Shown: piece after piece, positions 3,708 through 55,130 of the stretch
How positions within the stretch are numbered: position 1 is the first letter of the stretch
Layout: each line of letters opens with the position of its first letter
From: a virus
Strand: one strand, 5' to 3'
DNA length: 64,000 nt
IMG/VR virus record: IMGVR_UViG_2648501160_000003
Span: 7,251-71,250 of that record
Notes under the pieces: model-generated
Databases searched by the model: none
The model's input: only the letters and a program-made list of their open reading frames with translations
Told to the model about the DNA's origin: nothing
Translations under genes and position numbers: made by a program

Positions 3708-3737
3708 TAAAAAGCCCATCATGATGGGCTTTTTTCT
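3708..3737. terminator. bidirectional rho-independent terminator
   Basis: AGCCCATCATGATGGGCT hairpin followed by TTTTTT. Shared by convergent genes. Confidence 0.6.
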
Positions 3738-4264
3738 TATGATGGACATAAGGTTTGTTCTCTTCTTAGAATTTTCTTCTGTTCTAGATCTGCCCTTGCA
3801 TCTTTAATTAAAGACGAATCGAAATCCCAATCGAATACTTGCAATACTATAGCTTCCTTACACATGTATTCCCACGCTGGATCCTCTGAAGCTTCACCAC
3901 ACCAGTACTTCAGTGCTGCTTCCTTAACAACATCACTTTCAACACAGAAGCCTGAATCCATTAACTCAGTCACCTTTGTGCTCCAATACATATCGTGTTT
4001 CGTAACATCTCCTTTCGGCACGACCAAAAAAGTGTATTCCTCACCGCCACCTGCGTATTCAAGGTCTTCAAGCTCTTTCACTAAAAACACACTATCTTTA
4101 TGTGCAGTGAACTTATTAGGTCTATGGTATTCCAACCCCCTATAAAATCCAGCAGTTCCCCACTTTCCTTCATAATCTACACAATTTCTTAGTTTTGTTC
4201 CTGGAGGAAGGTAATCATCTGAACCATGATAAAATATTTTAGACATATAAATTAATACGAACAT
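3737..4264 (-). CDS. hypothetical protein
   Basis: 175-aa ORF. Confidence 0.4.
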   Translation of the reverse strand: MFVLIYMSKIFYHGSDDYLPPGTKLRNCVDYEGKWGTAGFYRGLEYHRPNKFTAHKDSVFLVKELEDLEYAGGGEEYTFLVVPKGDVTKHDMYWSTKVTELMDSGFCVESDVVKEAALKYWCGEASEDPAWEYMCKEAIVLQVFDWDFDSSLIKDARADLEQKKILRREQTLCPS

Positions 4265-28473: not shown

Positions 28474-29602
28474 ATGTTACGAGCAACTAAGGTACGTATT
28501 TACCCAACGCTAGAGCAAGCTGAGTTTCTTGAAGCTCAGTTTGGTGCTGTTCGGTTTGCGTATAACAAAGCTTTACATATCAAAACTCACTTTTACAAAA
28601 AGAAAAACATTTCATTAAGCCTTAAAAAAAGAGATAAAACCATTGTTATCTCTTGGCAAGAAATCGAGAAAGTACTCCTGGTTAAGTCAGTTCGATTCCA
28701 TTTCTTTGCAGCAATCGATCATCAATCTTGATAAGGCTTTCTCGAACTTTTTCAACCCAAAACTAAAAGCTAAGCTTCCTAAGTTTAAGCGTAAACACGG
28801 TTATCAGAGCAGTTACCATTGCACTGGACTGAAAATCCTTGAAAACGCTATCAAAATCCCCAAATGTAAACCTATCAAAGCTAAGATACACCGAGAGATA
28901 AGTGGAACGCTAAAAAGCATAACCATATCGAAATCCAGCACTGGTAAATTTTATGCTTCAATACTGGTCGATTGCAGTAATGAGGCACCTGCCAAACCAA
29001 AACATATCACAAAACTATCAGGTTTCGATTTAGGGCTGACGGATTACGTCATTAGCGATACAGGTGAAAAGATTGCCAATCCTCGGTTTTTAATTAACGC
29101 ATATAAAAACCTAAGGCGGAAACAAAAAGCCCTGAGTCGGTGTAAAAAAGGCTCTAAAAATAGAGCGAAAGCAAGACTGCTGCTTGCTAAAGCGCATGAG
29201 CGTGTGGCTAACGCTCGGAATGATTTTCAGCACCAGCTTTCAAAACGAATTATTGACGAAAACCAAGCGATAATTGTTGGAACGCTAAAATCATCCAACA
29301 TGCTAAAAAACAAACGACTTGCGAAACATATTACTGATGCGGCTTGGGGAGCATTTATTTCTAAGCTGGCATATAAAGCTGATATGTACGGTAAGTGGTT
29401 GATTAAGTGCGATCAGTGGCTACCCTCTTCGAAGACCTGCTCTTGTTGCGGCTACAAGATGGATAAAATGCCGCTCCATATCAGAGTATGGACTTGCCCG
29501 AGTTGTAATGAAGTACACTGCCGAGATACCAACTCAGGCAAAAACCTGCGTAATGCAGGTGTAATTGAATTAAAAGCGGCTGGATTGACCGTTTCTGCTT
29601 GA
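28474..29602 (+). pseudogene. tnpB: TnpB-family gene, frameshifted and lacking RuvC-II Glu
   Basis: N-terminal KVRIYPTLEQAEFLEAQFGAVRFAYN and C-terminal CSCCG...CPSCN zinc finger. The reading frame shifts +1 within the A7 run at about 28622..28628. The canonical EDL of RuvC-II is replaced by GTL. Confidence 0.65.
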
Positions 29603-40200: not shown

Positions 40201-40506
40201 GAACTTGTCGGAGTTGATTTGAACACTTTTACTTGATTCGAAATATTTTTGCTTTAAGCTGAATTTTTCTACTCTATGATCGACTACGTTTTCAAAGATG
40301 AAATAAGTAAGTAGCACCAACATTCCAACCATTGCAAAAAGCATGTGTTTCTTATTTCTTATACCCACCCCACCAGAAACAATAGCAAGAAGTATTGGAA
40401 CTAAATAGCCAATGCTGTTGATCGCCATAATCGGAAATGCGGAAGCGTTAAAGCTTACTGCCAATAGAGAGCTTCCTGCAATGACGTTGCGTAAGACTGT
40501 ATTCAT
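37294..40506 (-). CDS. large polytopic membrane protein of unknown function
   Basis: 1070-aa ORF with N-terminal and central clusters of hydrophobic helices. Confidence 0.45.
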   Translation of the reverse strand: MNTVLRNVIAGSSLLAVSFNASAFPIMAINSIGYLVPILLAIVSGGVGIRNKKHMLFAMVGMLVLLTYFIFENVVDHRVEKFSLKQKYFESSKSVQINSDKFLPIAMVPEVINSGKRVSLIKIQDVRNIYLNNNNTYGYAEYNKAIDYINANKFDYVLLRSHSYQTLLDFGEMVAKNANARVMLVKPELATFNCEQKTCAKNFREYDFEDYDFPIIEKFNARRAKLLDDFNIIVASRFISSISQIYKEDMIYLDVDLAYAYGDKYWSSISTKINRNKKTIVLINKNDNFSSSESFYNYKNGLLNILSEQTGVKDFYVTSNSELIREISLRSDDPVVTKSHINENRFYSPIEIHARSYSNFDYFTYICFTDQCVDTMGRDNSINASKLNIFSLNGSLLVNLEPLKRYKNDKLVIASHDLFSSLLGKLLAKNLADNGFKFKGFTYHYSMYFGAFERSVINGEHIASYDDNILQPLTKLLSVINYEFLDKDREINIYALIVISLIFGALSVSKNGNVSKTSSIGFIVISYILVNFFHLNPKLIDLEIFGVLFAAPLLATYIYVTTDKCKYAIFSLIAYWLAYSFISVSSMINYVLSFYSIGGVLAIAFSCKKVKEDKARIGEKYLLTVKHLANCKAGWIIENKEDLLRHIKNKKYLLRSNHLTKEEMDVSGKFESYLISGKEDAMQVYDAAIKDANILLKQDDIQFWLVPYVETILKGVMQSIGTNIGLVGISLGANDSVTLGTSSSYYEIDRAGNCKNWSDSKITKARLLKKLKEIEAIEGFPVIVEFGITRFGKIEIFQVRHQCVEYSHEQTRNALNGRYSVVFNESSSILGASVLSSLSEGRIVLAKGSMSMLKVVEPNQSLSYIATQTRLVAITKELSEIDLSNSITINAKVNLIKQIIDPIITLYFSGSSILFETVRDSIILNCVTSAVSKFGELPGYDLADKPVQVSTENSNLSSTTYKDVLHLIVSIALIRLRNELCSEFIDISRVAGSTISQLDEKIFIEDTTETNNMNEMIVVVEGSFSGETYSVDEFLMLSETDQVRAVIKDDFIPISYMMNCCRRVLMHHTK

Positions 40507-40621: not shown

Positions 40622-41740
40622 CTATTTCTTTCTGCGACTGTAAGCAGTGGCTCCTAAAGCAATCAGAACACCTAAACCAAAACTGCCACCAGATTTATCT
40701 CCTGAATCACCATTACCGTTTGTAGCATTGTCGTCATCACCGACAAAGTCTGGGTCTTCTCCTGAGTTACCACCCACTTCACCCTTGTCAGTGTATGAAG
40801 GCATATTCTCATCAGCAAGAGGATCATAGCTAAACACGGTCATTTGAGCTAATTGGTTAACTACATATTCTTCACCAATCTCAGCAGTGATTGTGTTTTT
40901 AATCCAGTCTACATAGTCAGCAATATTAGTAAATTCAGAGTAGTGATTGTTGTCACAGTTATCCTTGCCGATAGAGGCAATGCCAGCTAGTCGCAGACCT
41001 TTGTTGTTATCCCCTGCATTATTTGGGTTTTTCCAAATTAGTGGAGCGCCAAGATCTCCGTAACACATGCCTTGTGTGTATTCAGGATGTGGAGTAGTAC
41101 CACAATGTGTCAAACGAGTATTGTAACCGTCACACTTATCATTTGGCACACCAGATAGGTAGTCACGCTTTAAAGCGCCATCTAGCGAGCCTTGATAACC
41201 AGTTGTTACAAACAACGGTAAACGCTCCTGGTTCTCTACCCAGAAATCTGATTTTTGCTGTGTTAAAATATTTTCATCTTCGTCAGCGGTCATTAATTGG
41301 ATTACACCGTTCATTGGGAAGCTGCTTTCATTGAACTTGACCAGTGCAATATCGTTTGCATCAGAAGGGTTTCCAGTAGCGCTTGAGTGTACGAAGAACT
41401 TATCGATATTTAGTGTTGCTAGACCTTCACCATCATAATCTGGGAATGATACTTGCACACTTTCGATGTCATTCTTATCAAGACCCTTTGACACATCAAA
41501 GAAACACTGAGCAGAAGTTACAGCCCACTGAGTGTCAATGATTGCACCGCCACATACTTTTGCTTCTTCAACGCCATTCATTGTAGTGATTACCTTAACT
41601 TGCCAAGGGTAATTACTTTCAAGAACTTCAACGCCGCCAGTAGTGACTTGTTCTGTTCCATTAGTGGTGCTTGCTAAAGCAAGAGGGCTTGATACAGCAG
41701 TCATTGCAAGAATAGCAGATAGTAATTTTTTACTTTTCAT
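40622..41740 (-). CDS. secreted trypsin-fold pseudo-protease with GlyGly-CTERM sorting signal
   Basis: Signal peptide. VCGGAIID...WAVTSAQCF carries Gln in place of the catalytic His, NDIALVKF keeps the Asp, and CYGDLGAPL carries Leu in place of the Ser. The C-terminus SGGSFGLGVLIALGATAYSRRKK matches the GlyGly-CTERM/rhombosortase pattern. Confidence 0.55.
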   Translation of the reverse strand: MKSKKLLSAILAMTAVSSPLALASTTNGTEQVTTGGVEVLESNYPWQVKVITTMNGVEEAKVCGGAIIDTQWAVTSAQCFFDVSKGLDKNDIESVQVSFPDYDGEGLATLNIDKFFVHSSATGNPSDANDIALVKFNESSFPMNGVIQLMTADEDENILTQQKSDFWVENQERLPLFVTTGYQGSLDGALKRDYLSGVPNDKCDGYNTRLTHCGTTPHPEYTQGMCYGDLGAPLIWKNPNNAGDNNKGLRLAGIASIGKDNCDNNHYSEFTNIADYVDWIKNTITAEIGEEYVVNQLAQMTVFSYDPLADENMPSYTDKGEVGGNSGEDPDFVGDDDNATNGNGDSGDKSGGSFGLGVLIALGATAYSRRKK

Positions 41741-42478
41741 AAAAACTCCGTTACGGCGTTAAAGCCTTAATAAACTCATTAAAATCAAGATGTTAATCAT
41801 TTTGTATGTTTCGAATTATACTCTTGCAGGATTAGGTGTCAATAATATTTAATGAAATAAGATCAATTTCAAAACTTAATTTGATTTGAATCAATTTCTT
41901 CTTTGGTTCCTAACTTTATGTTTTATTTTATTAACTGTTTTATAGCGGCATGTTACAATATTATAAAAATAATACTGGAAACGGCAATGAACATCATAAA
42001 TCGCTTACAAACTGAATTTTAGTTTTTTTATGAAATAAGTGAGTCACACATTAGACTAAGAAGTGGCCTAGAAATAAAACTTACTGATTGGTACGGAAGT
42101 CCTTTGAGGAATTTTTTAATTCAAATTCTAAAATGGAGAAGATCAAAACCATTCTGAATATGGATAATGTCACTTATCCCGATGGAAATTCATTCGTGAA
42201 CGGTGAAGACAGACTCTTAGTTCCATTGAGCTGTATACGTCGATAAAACTTAGTCATACGGTTTTCCAAAAGGAACAGATGGAGAGATATTGATCGGTTT
42301 GACTTTAAAGAGTGGAAGCATCATTCAGATAGAGAGGAGAAATCCCGAACCACGACTGTCTCAGGGGATTGATTTTTAATCAGTTTAAGCGGGCTTTGCC
42401 TGCTTTATTTTTTTATTGATATTTAAAACATCTAATGTATCATGGTAAAAATAAACAATTAAATAAATAAAAAATTTT

Positions 42479-43504
42479 ATGAATGATATAATAAAAAGAT
42501 TGCGATCTGATTTCGGCATATATCGACAATCTCCTGTTGGAAAAAGGATAGGTTACAGTTTTTGGTTTCATGTCTCTTATGCAGACCGCTTTGGTGTTGA
42601 AATTGAGAAATTCTTAAATTCACCAAAAATTGATTTCATGCCGACTATAATCAAAATTAACTTTAAAACAAATGCAATATCATTGATTCAATGCGATGGA
42701 TTTGACAGTGAAGATTGCCCTGTAATTGGCAAGGTTTTAACCTTCAAACAAGACGGATCTTGTAAGCTAACTCAACAAAGCGAAAATCCTTTTATCTACC
42801 ATCATAAATGGCTTTTTGTAGCCGATGATTACAATGGCTTTGACATAAATCAATCAAAATTGTACTCATATGTATGGAAGTCCCTATTAGGTGTTGATTC
42901 GTCAGTATCCAGCATAATAGGCAGATATAACTGTTGGTGTGAAATCTTAAAAAAACACAAAATTGAAAATTTAACAAAGCTCTGGCTTGACTATGACCAA
43001 ATAGTATCATCAAAAAAAACATCTATGAATTCGAGAAATAAACCGAAAATTTTTGGACTTGGGTGTGATTTGGGCTTGTTTAGAGATAACACTGTCAATT
43101 TGGATATAGGGGGCGGTAAGTTTGAGACAGGTACAGCGTATCTATCTAAGATTGGAGTAACAAACTTAATTATCGATCCGTTTAACCGCCCTGTAATTGA
43201 TAACGCAAATTCCATTATTCAATCCAAAAAACACGGTGTTGACACAGTTACAATTAGCAACGTGCTTAATGTAATAATTGAAGATACTGTGAAGCTAAAA
43301 CTTATAGAACAAGCATTCGACGCTTTAAATGATGATGGAACGCTTTTGGTTACATGCTATGAAGGAAATCGCAGTGGTGTTGGTTGCTTTTCTTCTAAAG
43401 ATAGCTGGCAGGAAAACAAAAAAACTGCTGAATACTTGCCCCTCATACGTAAGATTTTTCCGAAATCTCACATTAAAAAGGGGTTAATCATAGCTAAAAA
43501 GTGA
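42479..43504 (+). CDS. hypothetical protein (possible Rossmann-fold methyltransferase)
   Basis: 341-aa ORF. LDIGGGKFETG resembles SAM-binding motif I, which is weak evidence. Confidence 0.35.
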   Translation: MNDIIKRLRSDFGIYRQSPVGKRIGYSFWFHVSYADRFGVEIEKFLNSPKIDFMPTIIKINFKTNAISLIQCDGFDSEDCPVIGKVLTFKQDGSCKLTQQSENPFIYHHKWLFVADDYNGFDINQSKLYSYVWKSLLGVDSSVSSIIGRYNCWCEILKKHKIENLTKLWLDYDQIVSSKKTSMNSRNKPKIFGLGCDLGLFRDNTVNLDIGGGKFETGTAYLSKIGVTNLIIDPFNRPVIDNANSIIQSKKHGVDTVTISNVLNVIIEDTVKLKLIEQAFDALNDDGTLLVTCYEGNRSGVGCFSSKDSWQENKKTAEYLPLIRKIFPKSHIKKGLIIAKK

Positions 43505-43528
43505 GCCTCAATTGAGGCTCATCTATCA

Positions 43529-44431
43529 TTATAAATCATAGTCGAATAGAAGATTATAGTCGTGCGTATATATTACGGATTTTAGAATACATATTTCTTT
43601 TTCATTGACGCAGTCAAGTTGTAAAAGTGACTCGTAAATACTCATAAGAACATCACTGGTCTCAAGAGCTGTTAATTCAATCAGACCATTTTTATCTGTG
43701 TTTCGATAGACTTCAAAATCATCAGATGAATATTTGTCAGCAATGATTAGTGGAATGTAGAGTTTAATATTATCGAGCAGCGTTTTCATGAAGTTGCTTC
43801 TATTCGTCGCAATTTCAATTGTTTCTAGACTAAAAAATAATTCACTCAAAGACTCATGAGTACAATGTGAAATGGATTTAGAAATAATTGATTTAGCTAT
43901 CTTTATTAAGTATTTAGAGCGTGTTGATTGAATTGTTAATTCAGAGATTCGCTCATAAGATTCTTTTAAAGCGATTAAGATTTTATCTTCTGAGTCAATG
44001 AGAGCATACTTAATATTGCGGGAAAGTTTTGATGCTAATACGCTATATTGTTCTTCTTTGTGCATTAACAGATCAATGTTCTTTTGAGAATATCCGACTT
44101 TATCATTACTTATTTGAGAACCATAAACCTTTGAAATTGCATTAAGTTCCCTTATTACCTTAGCTTCCAACTCAGAAATTTTATAAATAACATCTGTTTT
44201 AAAAAACTTACCATCTGGTTTGTATGCTTTTATTGTTTCTATTAAGTTCAGCTCGGCTTGTTCTATTACCTGGCTCACTAAGCATTTCGAGTTCACATCA
44301 ATTTTTGTAAGTCGAAAGTCTGACTCATGAAGATGGAATGATTTGGATAGCGCAATAAATTGACTAATTTTACTGTTCATAGTGTTTTTACCTTTATTTA
44401 TTATTGTTATTTGAAACATCGATAGTAACAA
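43529..44431 (-). CDS. hypothetical protein
   Basis: 300-aa ORF. Confidence 0.4.
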   Translation of the reverse strand: MLLSMFQITIINKGKNTMNSKISQFIALSKSFHLHESDFRLTKIDVNSKCLVSQVIEQAELNLIETIKAYKPDGKFFKTDVIYKISELEAKVIRELNAISKVYGSQISNDKVGYSQKNIDLLMHKEEQYSVLASKLSRNIKYALIDSEDKILIALKESYERISELTIQSTRSKYLIKIAKSIISKSISHCTHESLSELFFSLETIEIATNRSNFMKTLLDNIKLYIPLIIADKYSSDDFEVYRNTDKNGLIELTALETSDVLMSIYESLLQLDCVNEKEICILKSVIYTHDYNLLFDYDL

Positions 44432-44816
44432 TTACTGGTTTAAAGGTAAAACCAAAAACACGATATTGAATTTAACAACTCATAAATTACACAGTTAATA
44501 AAATAATTAATAAAAAGTGTTGTATTATTTTAAAAATACTTGTATATTTTATTTAATGTATATCGGAACGCGGTTACATTTCTTTGTTGTTTCATTTCTT
44601 TTCCAAGAGTTGGTCTTGTTGCTTAGCAGCAAGACTTTACTCTTTCTAAATGACTAAATATTCAATTCCTTGCACAGCGATAAGAGACGTATTTATCTTA
44701 AACCTTTATCAGAATTGCCCAGTTTCCTTTACATGCATGATAAACAAAGAACGTTTGACCATTAAATTGTTTAGGCATATACTCGATGATTATCAACTCA
44801 TATCAAACAAGGGTAT

Positions 44817-45482
44817 ATGATGATTTTGCATACATATGATCTCCTACGGAGTATACATGCTGTTAACGCAGCGTCTAAAGCAACTCTCAAGAACCCTTCC
44901 GAGATGACTGGTTTTCATAGAAAAGCAATCCAGTTAATGGATGAGCTAGACATTGACTTCAATGACTTATACACATTGAAAAATCGAGGGATTGCTTTCG
45001 CATTACAGGAAGGGATACTTCAATACCTATATCATCACAATGGCAAGCCTGTATACGCTGGTGTAGAGGATGGGTTTAAGTTTTTCTTTCATACCCCAAC
45101 GGAAATGACACCAGATCCAAAATTGGACTTTGATGAAAACCTACACTTGAATCTGATTGAAAATCAACAGAACAACACATTTACCCCTGTGTCTTTGATA
45201 ACTGCTATCAAAAACCTACAAAGCCTGCCTTCTGGACGAACCAATACGTCAATGGACGATTTCAAACCAAATCCAGTCCGATACGAAGGTCAAGGTAAGC
45301 ATAATATTGAAGCCGTAAACAAAAAGGTCATCAAAGAATATATGGTAAATGGATTTAGTTTTTCTCAATTACTTGAGGAAAATGATCTTGAACCAACCAG
45401 TTTCTACTCGGGGGAAACGAAACCTGGTCTTTATGGTCAGCACAGAGCGGGTCAGATCAGGAATAGAAAGTATAACAATTAA
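44817..45482 (+). CDS. hypothetical protein
   Basis: 221-aa ORF followed by a terminator at 45484..45512. Confidence 0.4.
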   Translation: MMILHTYDLLRSIHAVNAASKATLKNPSEMTGFHRKAIQLMDELDIDFNDLYTLKNRGIAFALQEGILQYLYHHNGKPVYAGVEDGFKFFFHTPTEMTPDPKLDFDENLHLNLIENQQNNTFTPVSLITAIKNLQSLPSGRTNTSMDDFKPNPVRYEGQGKHNIEAVNKKVIKEYMVNGFSFSQLLEENDLEPTSFYSGETKPGLYGQHRAGQIRNRKYNN

Positions 45483-45841
45483 TAAAAGAGCCTGCTTAGC
45501 AGGCTCTTTTATTAGAACCATATGTAATGGTTCACTTTATCGAATTCAACATTGTACACCAAAATCGCGGGAAGATAGCGCTCGTATAACAAAAATGCGA
45601 GCGCGTAGCTCCGTCCTTTAGGTCGGAGGAGCGAGCACTACTTGGAGTCACGTTTAAGCTTTTCTTCGCAGGCTTGCTTTACCCAAGCCGCAAATGGTGT
45701 TTTGCCTCTAGCTTTGTTAATTCGTTCTAGCAGGTCGCCAAAGCGTATTTGCTTTCTGTCTGTATTATCGCGTTTCTTCTCTTGCAATGGTACGTACCGT
45801 TAGTTAATATCTGGTACGTACCTTATCACTGAGTTGTTATC

Positions 45842-46728
45842 GTGAAAATAGAAAAAGCCTACAAATTCAAATTAGAACCAACGTCAGAGCAAGCAGGAAA
45901 ACTGGCTCAAATGACGGGGTGTGGGCGTGTGGTTTTCAATGACAGCCTTGAGTATGTGCTTAACATCATTAAAAAGTCGATTCCAATTACAGATAAAAAA
46001 GCACTTTATAAGCATCTTAATGATTTAGCGTTCAAAGAACGCAAGTTGCTTAAAAAGTCTTTTCCTAATTCTGCTTTTTTAAACAAACAATTAACGTCAT
46101 GGAAAAAGCTCAATCATCGGTTATGGTTAGATAATGCGTTTACGGATTGTTTGCAGCAGCGCCAGCGTGATTTTGTCAAAGCGTTGGATGAATGGTCGAA
46201 AGGGAAGCGCGGATTTCCCGTATTTAGGGCACGAAAAATTGCTCATCACTCAACAATGCGGTTTCCCGCACCTAAAAAACAGATCAGCATTCAAAATAAG
46301 CACATCAAATTACCTAACGGTCTTGGCTTGGTTCGTTATCACAATAGCCAACCTGTAATTGGTGAGTTGCGTAATGCTACCGTATCGCTTAATGCCGTTG
46401 GTGAGTGGTATATCTCTATTATGTGTTTGGTTGAGATTGAGCCACCAACGCACGTACAGGGTGAAATGACAGGTATTGATATGGGTATCGCCAAGAACAT
46501 GACCTTATCCACGGATTTTTGTGGAAATGAGGGTGTTTTTGAGGGTATCCATTCTTTCAGGGCTTATCAAGATAAGATAGCCATCGAGCAACGCAAATTA
46601 TCTCGAAAGGTGTTGGGTTCAGAGAACTGGAAGAAACAAAAACTCAAAGTAAGCAAGCTGCATCAACGCATTACCAACATTCGCAAAGACTACCAACATA
46701 AAGCTACATCTGAAATCAGCAAGAACCA
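45842..46728 (+). CDS. tnpB: TnpB-family endonuclease, exon 1 (interrupted by group II intron)
   Basis: KAYKFKLEPTSEQAGKLAQMTGCGRVVFN N-terminus and RuvC-I GIDMGIA. Homology ends at ...SEISKNQ, exactly where GTGCG begins. The remainder of the 468-aa ORF is read-through into the intron. Confidence 0.7.
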
Positions 46729-49252
46729 GTGCGCCTCTGTGGCGACACAAACCGTAACTCAAGGAATGAGTCACCCTATGGTAAACGGGTGTAAAGCACT
46801 ATACCTACCTGAGAGGGAAACCTCGAAAGGGAAAAAAGCATGTATAGAAAAAATGCGTGAGGGGAAGTTGTCATCTCCAATATGCGTAGAAGCTAAGATC
46901 GATATGGCAAAGCCTGATTGGTTGAATCCTAGACAAGATTGGGACAATGCTGACCCTATACCCACGACAACTAACGGGTATGTCTGCACATCTGAAGTAT
47001 ACGTGGTTTGTACTCCAGAATACCATTGTGCGGAAATCATACGTGATAAGCGTAATAGTCGAACGGGATGCCTAAGTCGGTCACGGAACGGTTGTGCCGT
47101 AACTGGGGGATCATCTAAGGGGAGCAATCCCTATGATGACGGAGTTTCCATAGTAGCCGATGACCTCACGGTCTATACGGGGCATGTAATGATGCCAGAA
47201 GGTAAAGGGAAGCAGGATAAACTTCGAAAGGAAGGTGAGTTATGGTGAAGTGCCATAAAGGGCTTGCCCGAATAGAGAAAATTCGTGAAATTAATGAATC
47301 CAAGACCAATTGGGTCAATAAAAACCTCTACAAGCTACTACTTGACCGTGAGCTACTTATCACCGCCTACGAATCAATTAAGAGTAAGCAGGGCAATATG
47401 ACCCAAGGCGTGGACGGGAAAACCCTCGACGGCTTTTCTATGGGAGTAATCGACAACATCATCGCTAAACTCAGCGACGAAAGTTTCATCTTCTCCCCTG
47501 CCAGAAGGGTTCTGATACCCAAAGCAAATGGGAAAACCAGACCGCTAGGTATCGCACCGCCAGTGGAGAAAGTGGTACAAAAGGCAATTGAAATAATACT
47601 CACCGCCATATACGAACCATCATTCTCCGCACACAGTCACGGCTTTCGACCAGAGCGTGGATGCCATACAGCACTCAAAGAGATCAAAGATACTTGGACG
47701 GGTACAGTGTGGTTCGTGGAAGGAGACATTAAGAGCTACTTTGACGAAATTAACCATCACAAACTGATCGAAATACTTAGAAAGAGAATCAACGACGAAA
47801 GATTCCTAAATCTTATATGGAAATCCCTAAGAGCTGGATACCTAGTAACCAGTGGAGTTCAAGCGAAAAGTAAACCGCAAATGCGATTAAGCACCAAAGG
47901 TCTACAATTCCGTGCTACGAGCGAAGGGACACCACAAGGGAGCATTATTAGCCCTATTCTGGCAAACATCTACCTACACGAATTCGATACGAAAGTAGAA
48001 GAGTGGTGTATGGAGCTTCGCCAAGGAGAAAGCAAAAGTGCACCTAAATCCAAGATTTATGGGAAGATGGCTGACCGATGCTCCAGACTCAGAATGAAAC
48101 TGGACGGAAAGGTCAAGATGATGAGAGGGGAAACCCGAACATCCGTACTAGAAGAACTCTCTAGGTTAAAAACAGAAATGCTAAACACTAAATCATCCGA
48201 AGATGGTTGGGTGAGAGTAAAGTACGTGCGATACGCCGATGACTGGATAGTCGGAATCAATGGGGATAAACAAGTGGCAACCGAATTCAAGCGTCGGGCG
48301 ACCAAATGGTTAGCCGACAACCTTGATCTAACGTTGTCACCCGAAAAGACCCAAATAACGCACGCTGTAAGAGGAAATGCCAAATTCTTAGGGACAACCA
48401 TTCGCACAAGCAAGGGTTTCCTCAAGAAACGCATAGCCAACGGTAGACCAACCATGATGAGAACAGGGGTAGGTTCAATACACCTCAAAGCTCCAATGAG
48501 TGAAATCATCCGTAAGCTTGCTGAAAAAGGATTCTGTCGAATGGCGGATAAACGACCGACCGCAAAACGCGAGTGGTTAGTGTACAAAGAGTGGGAAATA
48601 GTAGAGCGATACAACTCAGTATTGAGGGGGATACTCAACTACTACTCTTTTGCGTATAACCGAAGCGAACTACAGAGTGTACATTACATTCTCAAGTTCT
48701 CACTCGCACACACGCTCGCCAACAGACGACGCACCTCTATTAGTAAGGTACTAAAAGCAGGTAAAGGTAGTCCTACAGCCTACAAGGAAACCAAAGAAGG
48801 AACCAAGGTGGTTAAATTTGAAGCCCCAAGCTTCAAGGTAAACACCAAAGATTTCAGAACTGGTGCCTCACTAAGCAATGTAGCTTACACATACTTCAAC
48901 AAGCGAAGTAGAAGTAAACTAGGGGCGCACTGCGTAATCTGTCGTGAAACGGAGGGGGTGGTAATGCACCACGTCCGACATGTAAGAAAAATGGGCGAAA
49001 AGGTTAAAGGATTCAACAGACTGATGGCTGTATTAAACAGGAAGCAAATACCAGTATGCTCGGAATGCCACCATTCTATACATACAGGCAAATATGACGG
49101 GATGCCCCTGAGTAGCTTCGCTGATTATGCACTGGCATCTGCATAACACGAATGTTTATCTGGAGAGCGCAGTGCGTTGAAAGGCGCACGCTGCGTTCGG
49201 AGGCAGGTTATTGATATCCATAACTGGAGTTGGTAATCGAGCCTACCGCAAT
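46729..49252 (+). mobile_element. group II intron (about 2.5 kb) with intron-encoded RT/maturase/HNH protein
   Basis: 5' GTGCGCC start. About 510 nt of domains I-III lie before the ORF. Domain V GAGCGCAGTGCGTTGAAAGGCGCACGCTGCGTTC is at 49165..49198. The 3' end ...CCGCAAT directly precedes the resumption of TnpB homology in frame. Confidence 0.75.
47242..49146 (+). CDS. group II intron-encoded protein (reverse transcriptase, maturase X, HNH endonuclease)
   Basis: RT motifs TPQGSIISPILANIYLHEFD and YVRYADDWIVG (YADD). C-terminal HNH: CVICRE...HHVRHV...CSECHHSIH. Confidence 0.85.
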   Translation: MVKCHKGLARIEKIREINESKTNWVNKNLYKLLLDRELLITAYESIKSKQGNMTQGVDGKTLDGFSMGVIDNIIAKLSDESFIFSPARRVLIPKANGKTRPLGIAPPVEKVVQKAIEIILTAIYEPSFSAHSHGFRPERGCHTALKEIKDTWTGTVWFVEGDIKSYFDEINHHKLIEILRKRINDERFLNLIWKSLRAGYLVTSGVQAKSKPQMRLSTKGLQFRATSEGTPQGSIISPILANIYLHEFDTKVEEWCMELRQGESKSAPKSKIYGKMADRCSRLRMKLDGKVKMMRGETRTSVLEELSRLKTEMLNTKSSEDGWVRVKYVRYADDWIVGINGDKQVATEFKRRATKWLADNLDLTLSPEKTQITHAVRGNAKFLGTTIRTSKGFLKKRIANGRPTMMRTGVGSIHLKAPMSEIIRKLAEKGFCRMADKRPTAKREWLVYKEWEIVERYNSVLRGILNYYSFAYNRSELQSVHYILKFSLAHTLANRRRTSISKVLKAGKGSPTAYKETKEGTKVVKFEAPSFKVNTKDFRTGASLSNVAYTYFNKRSRSKLGAHCVICRETEGVVMHHVRHVRKMGEKVKGFNRLMAVLNRKQIPVCSECHHSIHTGKYDGMPLSSFADYALASA

Positions 49253-49613
49253 GGTTATCTGTGAGGCTTTAAAAGTTGCGAATATGAGTAAATCAGCGAA
49301 AGGTGACAGCGAAAACCACGGCAAGAATGTCGCAGCTAAATCGGGATTGAATAAGTCCATTCTAGATCAAGGTTGGCACGAATTACGTCGCCAGCTTGAG
49401 TATAAGATGCGCTGGAAGGGCGGGATTTATGGAGAAGTAAATCCACGCAATACCAGCCGTGAATGTGCTTCCTGTGGTCATACTGAAAAGGAAAACCGCA
49501 AAACTCAGGCAGAGTTTATTTGCCAGTCCTGCGGTCATTCAGATAATGCCGATAAAAACGCTGCTAAAGTGATCTTAAATCGCTATTTACGCGAGTTAGA
49601 ACAAGCGGCATAA
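49253..49613 (+). CDS. tnpB: TnpB-family endonuclease, exon 2
   Basis: VICEALKVANM (RuvC-II E), zinc finger CASCG...CQSCG, RuvC-III SDNADKNAAKVI. The frame is continuous with exon 1 if the intron spans 46729..49252. Confidence 0.65.
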
Positions 49614-49724
49614 GCAATTAATCAGGTTCGGGCAGAGCCGTAGCGTCTGTGAAGTGAATTGCATTAGTGATCAGCAGCAGAAAGTTGATGATAGAGTGAT
49701 TTGTCATCGCCTGTATTCAGGAAT

Positions 49725-49747
49725 CACCGTCCTTCAGGGCGGTGAGC
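49725..49747. repeat. hairpin 3' of intron-containing tnpB (CACCGTCCTTCAGGGCGGTGAGC)
   Basis: The palindrome shares its CCTTCAGGG loop with the hairpin upstream of TnpB copy 1 (12385..12406), and its GGGCGGTGAG arm with the hairpin 3' of TnpB copy 2. Confidence 0.45.
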
Positions 49748-50069
49748 ATGTCAAAAAGCCCTCGGATGTTGAGACGTCCACAGCCAGAACAGGATCTATA
49801 ATGTAATCCCCTATTACTATCCATTTTCTGTCTATAAGTCCCATTTCCGTTATCACTTTTCCGCTAACAATTTTCGTTACACTTAACAGTTCGAGACTTA
49901 AAGATTTCTTGAGATTATATCCAATTATCTCTACTGCATTTTTTGCAACGATATCTTGTGCGCTTTTTAATGATATTAATTGTTAATTCTTCTAGCTTCT
50001 TTTTAATGCTCTTTCCTAAAATAGAAAAGCGCCAGCGATTAACTGGCGCTCTGATTTTAAATAATAAAA

Positions 50070-51317
50070 TTAGTACAGAAATAGCTTGTCAAGCTGATCA
50101 ACTGTTAGGGCTTCGTTATAGAAACCTTCTAGTTGAGCTTCTTTGCCATTTTCATAGATATAATTAGGTGATTCACTATTTGCACCTGAACCAACCAATC
50201 TATAAACAGGGTAGTATTTAAACATTTCATCACGATTGAAGATCCCTACTTTGCGTTTTATGGCATATACAAATCCTGACAATTCATAGCTATTTGCTGT
50301 TTTAAGAGTTGATGGCTGATTACTCGGGAACACTGGATTACAGTCAATTTCGTTGTTGTGATACAATCCCGAATTATTAGTCAGTTTTTCACAGCTACTA
50401 AACTCACGGAAAACATGATAGTTATATGAGTTTCGTGGACCTTTATCATTCGATTTAGATTTCTTAACTAATTTATGGTTTACTACCTTAGTAGTATTTA
50501 CTCCACTATCTAATTGCTCACTCTCAATATAGCTTCTTACTTTTCCCAGATCTGTTTCTTTTATTTTTACGTCATATGGAAAGAAGTCCACCTCTTTACC
50601 ATAGAACTTGCTCAACATCTGTTCAAAATCCATTCCGTGCTTCTTGTAATAATAGAATCCAGAATCTTTTGTGCTTTGTTGACTTGCATGATAGTAAATA
50701 CCATTTACACCCTTTTTCTTATAAATAGGGAAATAGTAATGATGTTCTTCATTTGATACTTGCCCTCTCATGAAAACCATAACAAAGCCTGATTTTAGCA
50801 TTGTAGGATCATTTGAGAGTGAGTCCGAACCTTCAATTTCTACATTACATGAACCACCAATTCGACCAAATTCTTTGCCAAATGATTTGTAGCAATCTTC
50901 GATTTCATTGAATAGATAGAAGTTAAATGTTTTACGATCACTGAAAGCAAATTTCGTTTTTGAGTCTGCAATAACAACATCTACTGGTTTAACTGCCTTC
51001 GTCTCTTTAATTGGCTTAACAATCTGTGGAGATACAGAAGGCTTCTTAGTTTCAGCTTTTAACTCTGTTATTTCAGGCTTAATCTCTTCAGATTGAACTT
51101 TACTATTCAGCTTTTCATTGTTCTCAGGTTTATCAAAGAAGGTGTTGATAAATAACCCAAGAATAACTGCTAAAATGCAGGTTGCTGCAACAGAAGCTAT
51201 TACCTTCCCATTACCCTTAAAAATCAATCTTCCAAGGATATCGTGTGATTGTTTCTCCCCATCTATTAATCTAAGAGGGATGAGTAAAACCCAAATAATA
51301 AATAATGCGAAATTCAT
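50070..51317 (-). CDS. hypothetical membrane-anchored protein
   Basis: 415-aa ORF with two N-terminal hydrophobic segments. Confidence 0.4.
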   Translation of the reverse strand: MNFALFIIWVLLIPLRLIDGEKQSHDILGRLIFKGNGKVIASVAATCILAVILGLFINTFFDKPENNEKLNSKVQSEEIKPEITELKAETKKPSVSPQIVKPIKETKAVKPVDVVIADSKTKFAFSDRKTFNFYLFNEIEDCYKSFGKEFGRIGGSCNVEIEGSDSLSNDPTMLKSGFVMVFMRGQVSNEEHHYYFPIYKKKGVNGIYYHASQQSTKDSGFYYYKKHGMDFEQMLSKFYGKEVDFFPYDVKIKETDLGKVRSYIESEQLDSGVNTTKVVNHKLVKKSKSNDKGPRNSYNYHVFREFSSCEKLTNNSGLYHNNEIDCNPVFPSNQPSTLKTANSYELSGFVYAIKRKVGIFNRDEMFKYYPVYRLVGSGANSESPNYIYENGKEAQLEGFYNEALTVDQLDKLFLY

Positions 51318-51328
51318 TGCGGCTCCAT

Positions 51329-51649
51329 TTATTTCATCATTAATAACTTAATACATTTCAAATTAGCTAAAATTTTTTTTTGTTCTTCGCTTAATTCAAA
51401 TTCAGAAATGACAATGTATTCAGTGTCAGGCTCCAGGGATTCCGTAATTGATTTGACATCATCAGGATTGGTTAGGACAAGAAGGTGTTGAGTACATTGA
51501 GATACCTTAACACCATGCTTCACACCAAGCTTATACAGTTTGTAAAGCTCATTGCAGCTATACCCTACACCCACCTGAACTTCTTCATGAGCGCCTGAAA
51601 CTATTGCATTAGCAGCCTCTGTTTTCTCGTTCATATTAAAACGTTTCAT
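51329..51649 (-). CDS. hypothetical protein
   Basis: 106-aa ORF. Confidence 0.35.
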   Translation of the reverse strand: MKRFNMNEKTEAANAIVSGAHEEVQVGVGYSCNELYKLYKLGVKHGVKVSQCTQHLLVLTNPDDVKSITESLEPDTEYIVISEFELSEEQKKILANLKCIKLLMMK

Positions 51650-51829
51650 GATTAACCTTTTTTATTCTTTTTAATAAAATCCTTGATGAGCAGATGACCA
51701 TCTTTACAATGAAAATTGATGAAAAGAGTGTAATGAAAGCTAGCCAGATAATGCATTTCAAAGGAAAAATTAGTTGCTTAGTGTTCATGACTATTTAAGC
51801 CCTTGCAGAAGCAAGGGCTATACCTTTAT

Positions 51830-52039
51830 TTATTCTTTATCAGCAGATTCAGGCACTTCTTCAACTTCACTTTCTGAATTAGAAGATTTTTGAGCTTTCT
51901 GAAGTTGCGATGTTACTTTAGCTTGCAATCCCATTTCATTTGAAGCTTGGTTTGTACCCAATAGAACCAGGTTGCCATAACGTGCTGCCGTTGTAACAGA
52001 GTCGCGAGCATCCATTGCTTCCATTGACATCATCAGCAT
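51830..52039 (-). CDS. Band-7 C-terminal tail, detached from SPFH domain by an in-frame stop
   Basis: Translating across the TAA at 52112..52114 gives ...ARYGNLVLLGTNQASNEMG, which matches the N-x-VLLP-x-N-x-S-x-MG tail of stomatin/QmcA-type proteins. Same frame as ORF 52112..52795. Confidence 0.45.
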   Translation of the reverse strand: MLMMSMEAMDARDSVTTAARYGNLVLLGTNQASNEMGLQAKVTSQLQKAQKSSNSESEVEEVPESADKE

Positions 52040-52111
52040 ATTAATTTCTGATGCGTCAGTTGTTGACTGTTTGAACTTCTTCAGGTTATCTACACATACC
52101 TGAGCGTAAGA

Positions 52112-52795
52112 TTATCTTGATTTAACAGCAGCTTTGGTGCGCTCTTCAAGCGCTCCAGCATCTGCGCGAGCATCTGCCATTTTAAGTTCGAATTTAGCCT
52201 CTTTTTCAATTATTGCCGCTTCTAGTGTGCGCTTAGCAGCTACGACACGGTTTGAAGCATCACGTACTTCAGTAGGTAGTTTAGGGTCATCGATTTTAAC
52301 ATCAGTGATCTCATATCCGTACTGATTGTAGTTTTTGTTCAGTTTGTCGATTAGATTCTCGGTCATTTTACCTTTACTACTGTAAATTTCTTTTGTTTCC
52401 AAGGAATCACATTCGGCACAAGTCATTTGACGCAAATCAGACTTAATCAGAGATTGAGGATTGTCAAGGTCATAGCAAGCCTCTTGCATTTTATTCTTCA
52501 TTACGCGAACTGAAGCGTTAACTGTCATCCCAAGGACAACTTCATCTGCTGTTTTGACAGAGCAATCTTCTGTGATTTGGAAAATGTCAAAAGACACCTT
52601 GTCAGCAACACCATGAATTGGAGCTGGAAGTTTAAAATAAATGCCTGGCTCAGAGATTTCACGGACAATTCGACCACCAAAGAAGTTGATTAACACACCT
52701 TGCTTTGGTTTTACAATCACGATCATTGAGGATAGAAGTGCAAAGACAGCAACACCAATTGCGCCAAACATCAAAATATTAGATAGCGTATCCAT
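52112..52795 (-). CDS. SPFH/band-7 (stomatin/prohibitin-like) membrane protein
   Basis: N-terminal transmembrane helix, IVKPKQGVLINFFGGRIV...GIYFKLP SPFH core and an A/E/K-rich coiled-coil. Confidence 0.7.
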   Translation of the reverse strand: MDTLSNILMFGAIGVAVFALLSSMIVIVKPKQGVLINFFGGRIVREISEPGIYFKLPAPIHGVADKVSFDIFQITEDCSVKTADEVVLGMTVNASVRVMKNKMQEACYDLDNPQSLIKSDLRQMTCAECDSLETKEIYSSKGKMTENLIDKLNKNYNQYGYEITDVKIDDPKLPTEVRDASNRVVAAKRTLEAAIIEKEAKFELKMADARADAGALEERTKAAVKSR

Positions 52796-52910
52796 TTTAT
52801 TTCCTTTATTTAATTGATTAAATTTTTTATCCCAGTGTTATCACAAGGTTTTTCATTTGATTTGGTCGCATATTATAGGCCAGACTGCATCATGTCAATA
52901 TTTTTTACAA

Positions 52911-52936
52911 ACATAAAAAAGGAGGCTTAAGCCTCC
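52911..52936 (-). terminator. rho-independent terminator downstream of ndk
   Basis: GGAGGC-TTAA-GCCTCC hairpin with a T-run on the minus strand. Confidence 0.55.
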
Positions 52937-52953
52937 TAAAGTAATAGTTACTC

Positions 52954-53379
52954 TTATACAAAGAGCTTGGTTTTGAATAACTCAATCTCACGATTTGCTG
53001 ACTCATCGCTATCAGAGCCATGTACGGAGTTTTCACTTTTAGTTTGAGCGTACTTAGCTCTCAACGTGCCAGATTCTGCTTCTTGTGGGTTCGTAGCACC
53101 CATAAGACCACGGTATTTTAAAACAGCGTTTTCAGCTTCAATCACATACCCTACAACTTCGCCACTAGTCATGAATTCAATAAGTTCACCAAAGAAGGGC
53201 TTTTCCTTATGTTCCGCATAGAACGTTTCCGCAGCATGTTTGGTCATAACACCACGCTTTAGTGCAACGAGCTTAAAGCCAGCATTTAAGATATCGGCCA
53301 GGATCGCAGAATCAAGATTTTCTTTTGTTGCATTTGGCTTAATCAAGCCGAAAGTTAAGATACTTTTCATATATTTCAC
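52954..53379 (-). CDS. ndk: nucleoside diphosphate kinase
   Basis: GLIKPNA...NSVHGSDS active-site His motif. 141 aa. Confidence 0.85.
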   Translation of the reverse strand: MKYMKSILTFGLIKPNATKENLDSAILADILNAGFKLVALKRGVMTKHAAETFYAEHKEKPFFGELIEFMTSGEVVGYVIEAENAVLKYRGLMGATNPQEAESGTLRAKYAQTKSENSVHGSDSDESANREIELFKTKLFV

Positions 53380-53492
53380 TTTTTATTACTTATTAAAATT
53401 ACGTTTTGATGTTATATCTTTTGATCTAAAGGATCAATCCATAGAGTCGATCTACGTAAGAATCAATGTTTAAGTGATTCATATTTAGGCAA

Positions 53493-55130
53493 TCAAAGCG
53501 AATTCTGCACTTCTTGCTCTAAAATTTTACTTTGAATTTCGCCACCATCACCAAATAGAAATTCATGTTGCTTATTCAATACACTTACGAAATCAAAGTT
53601 ACTTCCTTGTTCATAACCACAGATCTTTAGTCCATTTTCCTTAAGAATTCCAACCAACGAAGGTGATACATTTTTTGGAACAATCGCAACAGAGAAATCG
53701 TTTAATCGAATAGGATTACTCATTTTTAACTCGAAGTAGGTATACGGAGCAACAATTAAACTATTTCTTAAATCATCGATTCTAGTTATAAGTTCATGCG
53801 GCAACTGGTCAACGAAAAAGCTATCACGTAGTTCATCGTTAACTTCACACCGAGATTGAACAAGTGCCTCTGTAGCTGCATTATTGTAAATTGATGACAC
53901 ATTTCCATTTGGATCTTTGAATTTGTAGTAAGCAGCTAATTCTTCGATTATCGCACTCAGTTCAACTTTAAGGCTCATGAAATACTCATTTACTTCTTCT
54001 TCAGATTTTAACTGGTCTATGTGATTCTCGATTTCTCCTAGAGAGTGTAATCGCTCTTTTACTGATGCAGCAATCTTAACTATCGAAGTTGAAAACAAAC
54101 TATCACATGTAATCAATTTTCTATTCATTTCTTTTGACAGGTTATCTAGAGTCGCTAACTCTCTTTCTACTCCGTAGATCTCATCATGCGAAATATCTTC
54201 TTTGTCGTAATCTACATCATGCTCAGATGTTTTAAAGAAAAAGGCTTTTCCAAAGCCAGGCTCAATTGTCTTTGATACCCAGTCTTCAAAAGTTCCGCGT
54301 GGCACATGATTTTTGAAGTATTCCTCAAGATCGCTTATGTATTTCGACTCGTCAATTGAAGATGTTCTTCTAAGGTGTTCTTTTAAATCATTCCTTGCAT
54401 TGTCAAAATAGCTTACATAGAGCTTTGGAATCCCGTCATCAAAGTACATGCTGTTTTCTATGAATGCATTTAACTTCCTAAGTTCAATCCTGTTTTTTCT
54501 TGAGTTGCCATCGCTTCCACCTGTACTGCTTAGCATTTTCATTTTTAACTGCACGTCAGCCAGAAGGAGTTTTGATATTTCTTTATTAGCATCATCATCA
54601 GGAAGATCTAACACATTGTTATCAATAAGAGCTTCAATTGATTCATTAGATAAAAAAGGTATCTTTTTCTCCTTAGGGATCTCCTTAGGCTTACAGGGGT
54701 TGAGTATATTTTTTTCTTTCAAATAGAGTAATTTTACAGCAGGATTCTTAACCAACAAGTTTCTTGCTGAAATAGCTCCTTTTAATAGCTCAGGATGTAT
54801 AACTGTTTGGGTTTTATATTTCTCGCCAACATTAACCTTATTTGCTTGCAGGGCTGAATCTAACCGATCATTTAATTGATCCCAGAATGAGTGATTCAAT
54901 TCAAAAGATACATCTGGTAATACTGAGCTGTACACATCAATAGATGAAGCGTAATTATTGTTGAAATCAATTTTTTTAGGGTCAAGAAGCAGTACGCAAG
55001 AGCCATACTTAAAGAACTCTTGGTTTGAAGGGATGAAGCCAAGTGAAGGATTTGGAAGCCCACCGATTAGGTTTGCGAACTCTAAATCACTTTCTGTTAA
55101 AGCGTGTGCTAATGCTATTCTTTTTTTCAT
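53493..55130 (-). CDS. hypothetical protein
   Basis: 545-aa ORF. Confidence 0.4.
   Translation of the reverse strand: MKKRIALAHALTESDLEFANLIGGLPNPSLGFIPSNQEFFKYGSCVLLLDPKKIDFNNNYASSIDVYSSVLPDVSFELNHSFWDQLNDRLDSALQANKVNVGEKYKTQTVIHPELLKGAISARNLLVKNPAVKLLYLKEKNILNPCKPKEIPKEKKIPFLSNESIEALIDNNVLDLPDDDANKEISKLLLADVQLKMKMLSSTGGSDGNSRKNRIELRKLNAFIENSMYFDDGIPKLYVSYFDNARNDLKEHLRRTSSIDESKYISDLEEYFKNHVPRGTFEDWVSKTIEPGFGKAFFFKTSEHDVDYDKEDISHDEIYGVERELATLDNLSKEMNRKLITCDSLFSTSIVKIAASVKERLHSLGEIENHIDQLKSEEEVNEYFMSLKVELSAIIEELAAYYKFKDPNGNVSSIYNNAATEALVQSRCEVNDELRDSFFVDQLPHELITRIDDLRNSLIVAPYTYFELKMSNPIRLNDFSVAIVPKNVSPSLVGILKENGLKICGYEQGSNFDFVSVLNKQHEFLFGDGGEIQSKILEQEVQNSL

Follow-up and report, generated by a model that had tools for sequence, protein, structure and literature searches.

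The 64,000-nucleotide stretch of DNA analysed here (the window; positions 7,251 to 71,250 of the IMG/VR virus record IMGVR_UViG_2648501160_000003) carries a tnpB gene of the IS200/IS605 type that is split by a group II intron. Window positions 42242..54146 are 100% identical to 384896..396800 of CP007655.1, which is chromosome 2 of Vibrio cholerae (assembly GCA_001045415.1). That a complete group II intron occupies 46729..49246 inside tnpB, in the sense orientation, we regard as virtually certain. The gene and its insertion consist of the following parts, in window coordinates:

45842..46728, + strand: tnpB exon 1, from the GTG start at 45842; codons 1-295 and the CA of His296, with the HTH, the OrfB_IS605 region and RuvC-I (GIDMG, D213); assigned from Pfam, NCBIfam and the alignment of homologues.
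46729..49246, + strand: group II intron, 2,518 nt; delimited by the intron-less allele L011, intact homologues and the end of the Rfam model; covariation in domains I-III.
47242..49146, + strand: intron-encoded protein of 634 aa in domain IV, with reverse transcriptase (RT; YADD), maturase/X and HNH regions.
49165..49198, + strand: domain V, a 34-nt hairpin with AGC triad and GAAA loop; RF00029 alignment.
49201..49244, + strand: domain VI; its bulged branch-point A, at 49240, is nucleotide 7 counted back from the intron 3' end; RF00029 alignment and reading of the sequence.
49247..49613, + strand: tnpB exon 2, from the last base of His296 to codon 417 and the stop codon (49611-49613), with RuvC-II (E302), a CxxC...CxxC zinc finger and RuvC-III (D398); its first bases, CG, form delta'.

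The boundaries of the intron are set by alleles and homologues that lack it, against which four in-frame 3' boundaries were compared. The intron-less allele L011 (GCA_963908535.1) is 99.7% identical over 1,681 nt and aligns without a gap only when 46729..49246 is removed, its junction reading ...AAGAACCA followed directly by CGCAATGG; L012 is a further intron-less copy. In a collection of 5.8 billion proteins, intact homologues have a length of 417 aa and an identity of up to 99% (P0001); at the junction they show ...SKNHAMVICEAL (in a longer stretch, ...SEISKNHAMVICEALKVANM...), a sequence that is reproduced only with an exon 2 start at 49247. Given the gap-free match to L011 and these homologues, we therefore place the start of exon 2 at 49247. 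The end of the Rfam model RF00029 coincides with 49246, and the intron so delimited starts with GTGCG and ends in ...CCTAC (5' GUGCG and 3' ...CCUAC in the RNA), in keeping with the AY rule. A first-pass annotation of this DNA, made from the sequence alone, had already ended exon 1 at 46728, recognised the group II 5' end GTGCG at 46729, called the 634-aa RT/maturase/HNH reading frame at 47242..49146 and located domain V at 49165..49198, within the RF00029 match; all four are confirmed, with HNH the weak part of the protein assignment, and its view that a full group II intron splits tnpB is right, the boundaries now coming from L011. It had, however, ended the intron at 49252, which L011, the intact homologues and Rfam agree is 6 nt too far, and had predicted a product of 415 aa reading ...SKNQ-VICEAL, in which the Q comes from misreading the first G of the intron into the codon. 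An intron of 46729..49252 does leave the reading frame continuous, and AAT is readable as an intron end, but its removal deletes CGCAAT, which is present in both intron-less copies, all intact homologues carry H-A-M at the junction, and 49246 is the end indicated by the Rfam model as well as by the AY rule. We see practically no chance that the longer intron and the 415-aa product are correct.

Without splicing, the open reading frame (ORF) that begins at GTG 45842 encodes the N-terminal part of TnpB and then foreign sequence, up to a stop at 47248. The predicted spliced product is 417 aa long, with His296 as the split codon (CA/C, the slash here and below marking the intron), and covers positions 1-389 of 389 of the NCBIfam model NF040570 (guided_TnpB) at 263 bits (cut-off 100), so that the end-to-end profile alignment suggested in the first-pass annotation is obtained with the corrected product. 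Pfam matches are to HTH_OrfB_IS605, OrfB_IS605 and Cas12f1-like_TNB, and structures of ISDra2 TnpB match the spliced product at 7e-31. Aligned with intact homologues, the product has D213 at an invariant position and E302 and D398 at nearly invariant ones; of the zinc-finger cysteines, C372, C388 and C391 are fully conserved and C369 almost so. By homology, D213, E302 and D398 would be the catalytic residues. With RuvC-I in exon 1 and RuvC-II, the zinc finger and RuvC-III in exon 2, a complete TnpB is predicted only after splicing, and the earlier statement that the three RuvC residues come together only then is right (D213 from exon 1, E302 and D398 from exon 2).

In the public annotation of CP007655.1 (AKO77650/AKO77651 and AKO78113/AKO78114) the gene appears as a 468-aa 'TnpB family' or hypothetical protein, the 634-aa protein and a 120-aa TnpB fragment, and in that of Idiomarina as TnpB pieces of 438 aa and 90 aa. 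The 634-aa protein is labelled 'hypothetical' or 'reverse transcriptase domain-containing' in the V. cholerae and Idiomarina assemblies, and both the intron and the 417-aa product are missing from these ORF calls and protein names. The present analysis corrects the public annotation of the split tnpB in both.

The intron belongs to the LtrA-like (mitochondrial-like) class and is of IIA type. A covariance-model search, again an idea of the first-pass annotation, gave an RF00029 match to domains V and VI at 49163..49246 that spans the full model (1-77) with 56.3 bits against a gathering threshold of 40, and which is the sole gathering-level Rfam match in the window. For domains I-III, an RNAalifold consensus resting on four related introns consists of a long-range closing stem of domain I followed by two further domains, and 62 of its 113 predicted pairs show compensatory change. 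The intron-encoded protein matches RVT_1 (1e-32) and Intron_maturas2 (2e-26), aligns end to end with the solved LtrA (2.6e-90) and reaches 6e-80 against TIGR04416, where its 269 bits lie below the equivalog cut-off of 300; the YADD motif and the HNH motif CxxC/HH/N/CxxC can be read in its sequence. Proteins 100% identical to it are encoded twice in CP007655.1 (AKO77651 and AKO78113). Substitutions in its ORF fall 144/102/370 over the three codon positions, a strong third-position bias that indicates purifying selection. An IStron was also considered as the identity of the locus and was ruled out: there is no match to a group I intron family, and the ribozyme is a group II intron lying inside tnpB.

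Recognition of the insertion site can be read as predicted pairings between exon-binding sites (EBS) in the intron and intron-binding sites (IBS) in exon 1, together with delta-delta':

46716..46721, + strand: IBS2, TCAGCA, at -13..-8 from the insertion point; complementary to intron nt 220-225 (TGCTGA).
46723..46728, + strand: IBS1, GAACCA, at -6..-1; pairs with the EBS1 TGGTTT, including one G-U pair.
46948..46953, + strand: EBS2, TGCTGA, intron nt 220-225, in the loop of a GGG...CCC hairpin; 6-bp pairing.
47002..47009, + strand: delta and EBS1, CG then TGGTTT (CGTGGTTT, intron nt 274-281), in a hairpin loop; pairs with GAACCA/CG, -6..+2, over 8 bp.

We estimate that 520 nt would contain the 8-bp delta-EBS1 match about 0.03 times by chance. 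In IIA (LtrB-like) introns delta adjoins EBS1 on its 5' side and pairs with +1/+2; the layout here is of that type and fits the LtrA-like protein. The EBS segments are unchanged in two related introns that sit in other tnpB genes (L004, from a metagenome, and L026, from Idiomarina), while a third (L019, also from a metagenome) has GGCTGA at the EBS2 position.

The window copy has close counterparts in V. cholerae, one of them on the same chromosome, which were compared part by part, including the left end (LE) and right end (RE) of the insertion sequence (IS):

Window against L002 (same chromosome, 778-790 kb): exon 1 90.6%, exon 2 91.3%, RE 90.8% and LE 99.3% identical; 0 differences in 2,518 nt of intron.
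Window against L013 (another V. cholerae assembly): exon 1 93.5% and exon 2 96.2% identical; 2 differences in 2,518 nt of intron.

The exons of these three tnpB alleles are thus 4-9% apart, while their introns differ at 0-2 nt. Since transfer of the transposon as one unit would have given equal divergence in exons and intron, the comparison points to a separate and recent entry of the intron into these alleles, that is, to recent homing. The identical tract around the intron that is common to all three copies runs from -15 to +18, approximately the size of a group II target site. We also considered whether the transposon had moved or recombined with the intron aboard as cargo and without any independent homing. 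All copies have the same IS ends and the same ACAC left flank, their LEs are 99% identical, and IS200/IS605 elements can hold cargo between LE and RE; the divergence of 4-9% in the exons against 0-0.08% in the intron nevertheless speaks against such a history, as does the presence of the same intron lineage in tnpB genes that are only about 45% identical, and we consider it very improbable.

These distant tnpB genes carry the intron at the same codon. The 90% cluster of the intron protein holds several V. cholerae assemblies and an Idiomarina sp.; in the latter (L026) the intron is 92.4% identical in nucleotide sequence, TnpB is 45% identical and the site reads QISKNH/AMIAIEDL. Metagenome L004 has an intron protein of 71% and a TnpB of 44% identity, an adjoining tnpA and the site TISKNH/AMIVIEDL, and in metagenome L019 the intron protein is again 71% identical and the site reads SIISKNH/AMVVIEDL. 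A search of metagenomes with the exon-intron junction pattern gave L019 as its one true new member, besides three chance matches; the five matches to the pattern in 185,579 genomes were also due to chance, with no TnpB or intron-protein homology. The sequences point to a small intron lineage tied to one conserved tnpB codon, and our search of the literature turned up no description of this Vibrio/Idiomarina lineage.

More distant relatives, with intron proteins that are 44-50% identical, occupy other targets. In L007-L010 the intron is flanked by an 82-aa ORF and a RecT-like gene; in L006 (V. parahaemolyticus) it lies downstream of a polA-type gene. In L006, 24 nt before the intron 5' end (about 2385..2408; GTAGGGTACAGAGGTAAGATGTTC) recur after the 3' region, downstream of 4869, which might reflect a duplication of the target or an unusual form of the 3' end. 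In L023 (1712..4521), L024 (1734..4583) and L025 (1828..4454), from V. fluvialis, V. vulnificus and Halomonas and with intron proteins that are 44-47% identical, the intron interrupts the anticodon loop of a tRNA(CAT) gene (...GACTCATAA/intron/TCGATTGG...), which looks like that for tRNA-Ile2 (ileX). ARAGORN recovers a tRNA of 76-77 nt in all three after removal of the intron, and the tRNA-borne introns of the two Vibrio loci lie just downstream of rpoD. Group II introns in bacterial tRNA anticodon loops have been shown by a 2026 survey (PMC13011429).

A further property of the lineage concerns the reading frame of exon 1, which runs on into the intron:

46729..47248, + strand: stop-free extension of the exon-1 frame, 171 sense codons, ending with TGA at 47246..47248.

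Over intron nt 1-513 the tnpB frame contains 0 stops, compared with 20 and 12 in the other two frames, and of 20,000 dinucleotide shuffles none was stop-free (mean 10.7 stops). The exon frame is likewise free of stops in L004, L019 and L026, where the other frames hold 12-21, and between the window and L004 stops have appeared or disappeared 8 and 12 times in the two other frames. In five related introns that occupy other targets, each of the frames is interrupted by 5-21 stops. One reading of this extension is that it forms a functional domain, fused to the N-terminal 296 residues of TnpB as an alternative product. The frame being open in all four lineage members, together with the result of the shuffles, could be taken in its favour; substitutions in the stretch are, however, spread evenly over codon positions (32/38/39), the open frame, with 65% amino-acid identity, is no better conserved than the closed ones (63% and 61%), and the read-through peptide, searched against the 5.8 billion proteins, had no relatives beyond this intron lineage. 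The codon-position analysis led us to reject a fused domain, which we consider most unlikely, and the even spread and unraised identity mean that the openness of the frame is conserved and not the peptide. That the peptide search yielded a single extra protein also indicates that the lineage is small.

The exon-frame UGA (47246-47248) lies 4 nt after the AUG of the intron protein at 47242 (ATGGTGA), and both are contained in a conserved 7-bp hairpin. We infer that the lineage has adapted to this one site and its reading frame. Translational coupling, or protection against transcriptional polarity, is the reason for the open frame that we would suggest, with the chances evenly balanced for and against it. 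Going further, intron-protein synthesis, splicing, TnpB production and mobility might all be gated by translation of tnpB, with ribosomes ending inside the hairpin that hides the AUG; this we put forward tentatively and think rather doubtful, but if true the intron would be a switch, built into the gene of an RNA-guided nuclease, that acts through translation and splicing. Our literature search found no description of an exon-continuous frame through domains I-III for bacterial group II introns.

We propose the following mechanism for how this locus might have arisen and might work. A tnpB-only element of the IS200/IS605 type in V. cholerae chromosome 2 would have been invaded by a retrohoming LtrA-like (IIA) group II intron, the RNA of which would recognise the DNA for I-S-K-N-H-A, a conserved TnpB motif that precedes the RuvC-II glutamate by six codons, through EBS2-IBS2 (-13..-8), EBS1-IBS1 (-6..-1) and delta-delta' (+1, +2). 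Insertion would take place in the sense strand, between the second and third bases of the His296 codon. The tnpB promoter would then give a precursor transcript, from which the ribozyme, helped by the 634-aa protein, would be excised as a lariat, joining the exons as CA/C to encode the 417-aa TnpB (predicted ligation of ...ATCAGCAAGAACCA to CGCAATGGTTATC...). Full-length nuclease would depend on splicing, and the guide-RNA region 3' of the intron would be left untouched. The excised intron-protein particle could reverse-splice into empty tnpB alleles and then be copied to DNA, a route by which it may have spread to the three diverged V. cholerae alleles and to the distant tnpB genes of other genera, with the transposon serving as a multi-copy, dispensable and horizontally mobile landing site. 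Ribosomes coming from exon 1 would be delivered to the AUG of the intron protein (coupling) and/or would keep the RNA covered against premature termination. Splicing and retrohoming by reverse transcription are here predicted from sequence. Taken as a whole, with its anatomy, targeting, expression, spread and fit to the frame, this explanation is the best we can offer and in our judgement a likely one; the intron, too, is probably still able to splice and to move by retrohoming.

Several observations weigh against this proposal. The Pfam match of the HNH domain, at 20.5 against a gathering threshold of 23, is sub-threshold. The intron protein has a Shine-Dalgarno-like sequence of its own (AAGGTGAG), so that coupling would be unnecessary for its expression. 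The lineage is also rare: a scan of 185,579 species-representative genomes with the back-translated intron protein found no true member, neither the pattern nor the protein found one in the viral contig collection, and a megablast of the whole element against the plasmid and phage collections was without a match. Furthermore, the host tnpB of L004 (around 3690..3865) has an in-frame stop near codon 58, and that of Idiomarina L026 (5010..5282) is frameshifted in its 3' part, while the intron and its ORF are intact in both. The intron is thus independent of a working TnpB, and the dependence of TnpB on splicing may be moot in some copies. Finally, the window and L002 are identical up to +62 on the 3' side of the intron, the rest of exon 2 differing at about 1 nt in 10, and their LE is far closer (99.3%) than the adjacent exon 1 (90.6%). 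Together these patterns mean that the IS copies are recombinant mosaics, and in this pair the intron may have been transferred by DNA-level gene conversion.

The apparently damaged host genes bear on the possibility that the insertion merely kills the gene, the intron no longer splicing and tnpB being a pseudogene in pieces of 468 aa and 120 aa. The three separate ORFs of the public annotation would agree with this, as would the stop and the frameshift in the two other host genes. Every splicing element is, however, present and conserved with covariation, the intron ORF bears the mark of purifying selection and the near-identity of the intron copies shows them to be recent. The window exons, moreover, match the uninterrupted allele at 99.7% identity, with D213, E302, D398 and the zinc finger all retained. 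We therefore consider a dead insertion unlikely.

The mosaic structure in turn raises the possibility that the intron has spread by homologous recombination or gene conversion of DNA, and not by reverse splicing and reverse transcription. The tract from -15 to +62 that is identical in the window and L002, in which L013 has 4 differences within +1..+62, would suit a conversion event, and the LE-versus-exon mosaic shows that IS copies do recombine. Against this, the identical flank upstream measures only 15-35 nt and the tract common to three copies (-15..+18) is shorter than usual conversion tracts; the same codon is occupied in hosts too diverged (about 45% amino-acid identity) for homologous recombination; and neither the RT, nor the HNH domain, nor the EBS-IBS pairings show damage. 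Spread by recombination alone seems improbable to us, and retrohoming is the route that we prefer.

A close known counterpart is Ll.LtrB of Lactococcus lactis with its protein LtrA. The two share a protein with RT, maturase and HNH regions that aligns over its full length (2.6e-90), the target geometry (IBS2 at -13..-8, IBS1 at -6..-1 and a delta 5' of EBS1 that pairs with +1) and a domain IV ORF whose start codon lies in a small hairpin. The host of Ll.LtrB, however, is a conjugative relaxase gene, whereas here it is tnpB, with the exon frame open through domains I-III and overlapping the start of the intron protein; to our knowledge, no such open upstream-exon frame overlapping the intron-protein start has been noted for Ll.LtrB. 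An analogous frame is found in introns aI1 and aI2 of yeast mitochondrial cox1, where the frame of the upstream exon is also continuous through domains I-III and translation of the exon serves the intron protein. In the yeast introns this protein is made as an in-frame fusion to the exon and is then cleaved. Here the UGA lies 4 nt after a separate AUG in another frame, and re-initiation would be expected instead of fusion.

Introns that home into IS genes are already known, and the kind of element described here is not new. RmInt1 resides in ISRm2011-2 of Sinorhizobium meliloti, where splicing has been argued to limit the spread of the IS (PMC4238363), and E.c.I4 homes into transposase genes of the IS629/IS911 type (PMC3522654). 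Both likewise occupy a fixed position in an IS gene in near-identical recent copies and control the IS gene by splicing (PMC4238363, PMC3522654); their hosts are DDE transposase genes and the introns are described as belonging to a different class, RmInt1 using an EBS3-IBS3 pairing (PMC4238363), whereas here the host is a TnpB nuclease gene and the intron protein bears an HNH domain. The same pairing of elements was reported in 2016 by Kapitonov, Makarova and Koonin, who noted IS605 transposons of Anabaena and Nostoc with RT-HNH group II introns in them (PMC4810608); our comparison with these cyanobacterial introns, including that of PCC 7107, follows a brief description that gives no site, class or mobility (PMC4810608). 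IStrons, too, unite a self-splicing intron and a TnpB transposon in one locus, with RNA processing that interacts with the expression of TnpB and omegaRNA (PMC10690162, PMC4227781), but there a group I intron has the IS inside or fused to it and the whole unit splices from a host gene, whereas here a group II intron lies inside the IS's own gene.

The first-pass annotation called the nesting of the two elements unusual, which overstates the case, as group II introns in IS genes are widely documented (PMC4238363, PMC3522654, PMC4810608). From that observation the group II intron in tnpB, the exon 1 end with the 5' end of the intron, the ORF and domain V stand, and the 3' site, the product length and the rarity do not; it did not include the recent homing, the shared site in distant tnpB genes, the stop-free frame or the position of the guide-RNA region downstream of the intron. 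What is new here is the deep tie to one tnpB codon and the stop-free exon frame. The locus offers a natural example of an apparently active LtrA-type intron that targets a conserved motif in the catalytic core of TnpB, and in it the mutual effects of a retroelement and an RNA-guided transposon nuclease on their expression and spread could be studied. The stop-free frame, being conserved, is a mark in the sequence, open to testing, of an intron's adaptation to the frame of its host gene. By itself, the finding leaves the understanding of TnpB or of group II introns unchanged; it provides an experimental system and not a new principle.

The host element extends over 45560..49754, limits that are set by four copies in different flanks (window, L002, L013 and L011). 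Outside the split gene it has the following features:

45556..45559, + strand: ACAC tetranucleotide directly 5' of the element; precedes the window, L002, L013 and L011 copies, whose left flanks are otherwise unrelated.
45560..45841, + strand: LE, where similarity between copies starts; imperfect hairpins at 45578..45604 and 45609..45628, read from the sequence.
49520..49547, + strand: promoter-like site inside exon 2, TTGCCA, 16-nt spacer, GATAAT; from a consensus scan matching 10/12 positions, without statistical support.
49614..49754, + strand: RE; similarity between copies stops at 49754; terminal hairpin at 49724..49745; element end ...GAGCATGTCAA.

All four copies have ACAC before them and ...GAGCATGTCAA at their end, with TCAA as the right terminus. 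From the way in which IS200/IS605 elements work, ACAC is probably the insertion target and a motif like a transposon-adjacent motif (TAM). The second LE hairpin (45609..45628) resembles that of the RE, and the RE terminal hairpin shows 2 compensatory pairs in L002. No match resembling the Y1 HUH transposase TnpA was found in the element or in the whole 64-kb window, and only 282 nt separate the start of the LE from tnpB. We therefore class the element as a tnpB-only, non-autonomous IS200/IS605 member; an autonomous IS605 with tnpA and tnpB is ruled out, as the element has no tnpA.

The guide-RNA region expected of such an element, the end of the tnpB ORF plus the RE, lies wholly 3' of the intron and is uninterrupted. 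The RE and the end of exon 2 are the probable omegaRNA scaffold; this putative region is predicted to be structured and varies little between copies. An Rfam E-value search for a described omegaRNA family yielded only a weak, sub-threshold HgcC match at 49668..49761 (21.6 bits against a cut-off of 50). A guide-RNA transcript of its own might start from the promoter-like site at 49520..49547, with an omegaRNA 5' end predicted near 49555.

Just upstream of the LE, after a 221-aa ORF, lies a perfect 16-bp palindrome, TAATAAAAGAGCCTGC-TAA-GCAGGCTCTTTTATTA, at 45480..45514, which the scan listed on the minus strand only; as the palindrome is perfect, it could act as a bidirectional terminator.

Elsewhere in the window there are two more genes of the TnpB family, at 12526..13902 (+) and 28643..29602 (+), which match OrfB_IS605 and Cas12f1-like_TNB, are uninterrupted and are 24-30% identical to the split tnpB. 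The G+C content of the window is 36%, low for V. cholerae, which has about 47%. A superintegron context was rejected on this G+C content and for want of repeated attC-like units in the window, which looks like a horizontally acquired island. Most large neighbouring ORFs, including one of 1,070 aa at 37294..40506, are without a Pfam match; the window also has genes of trypsin-like (40622..41740), Band_7 (52112..52795) and PBECR5 nuclease-like (53493..55130) type.

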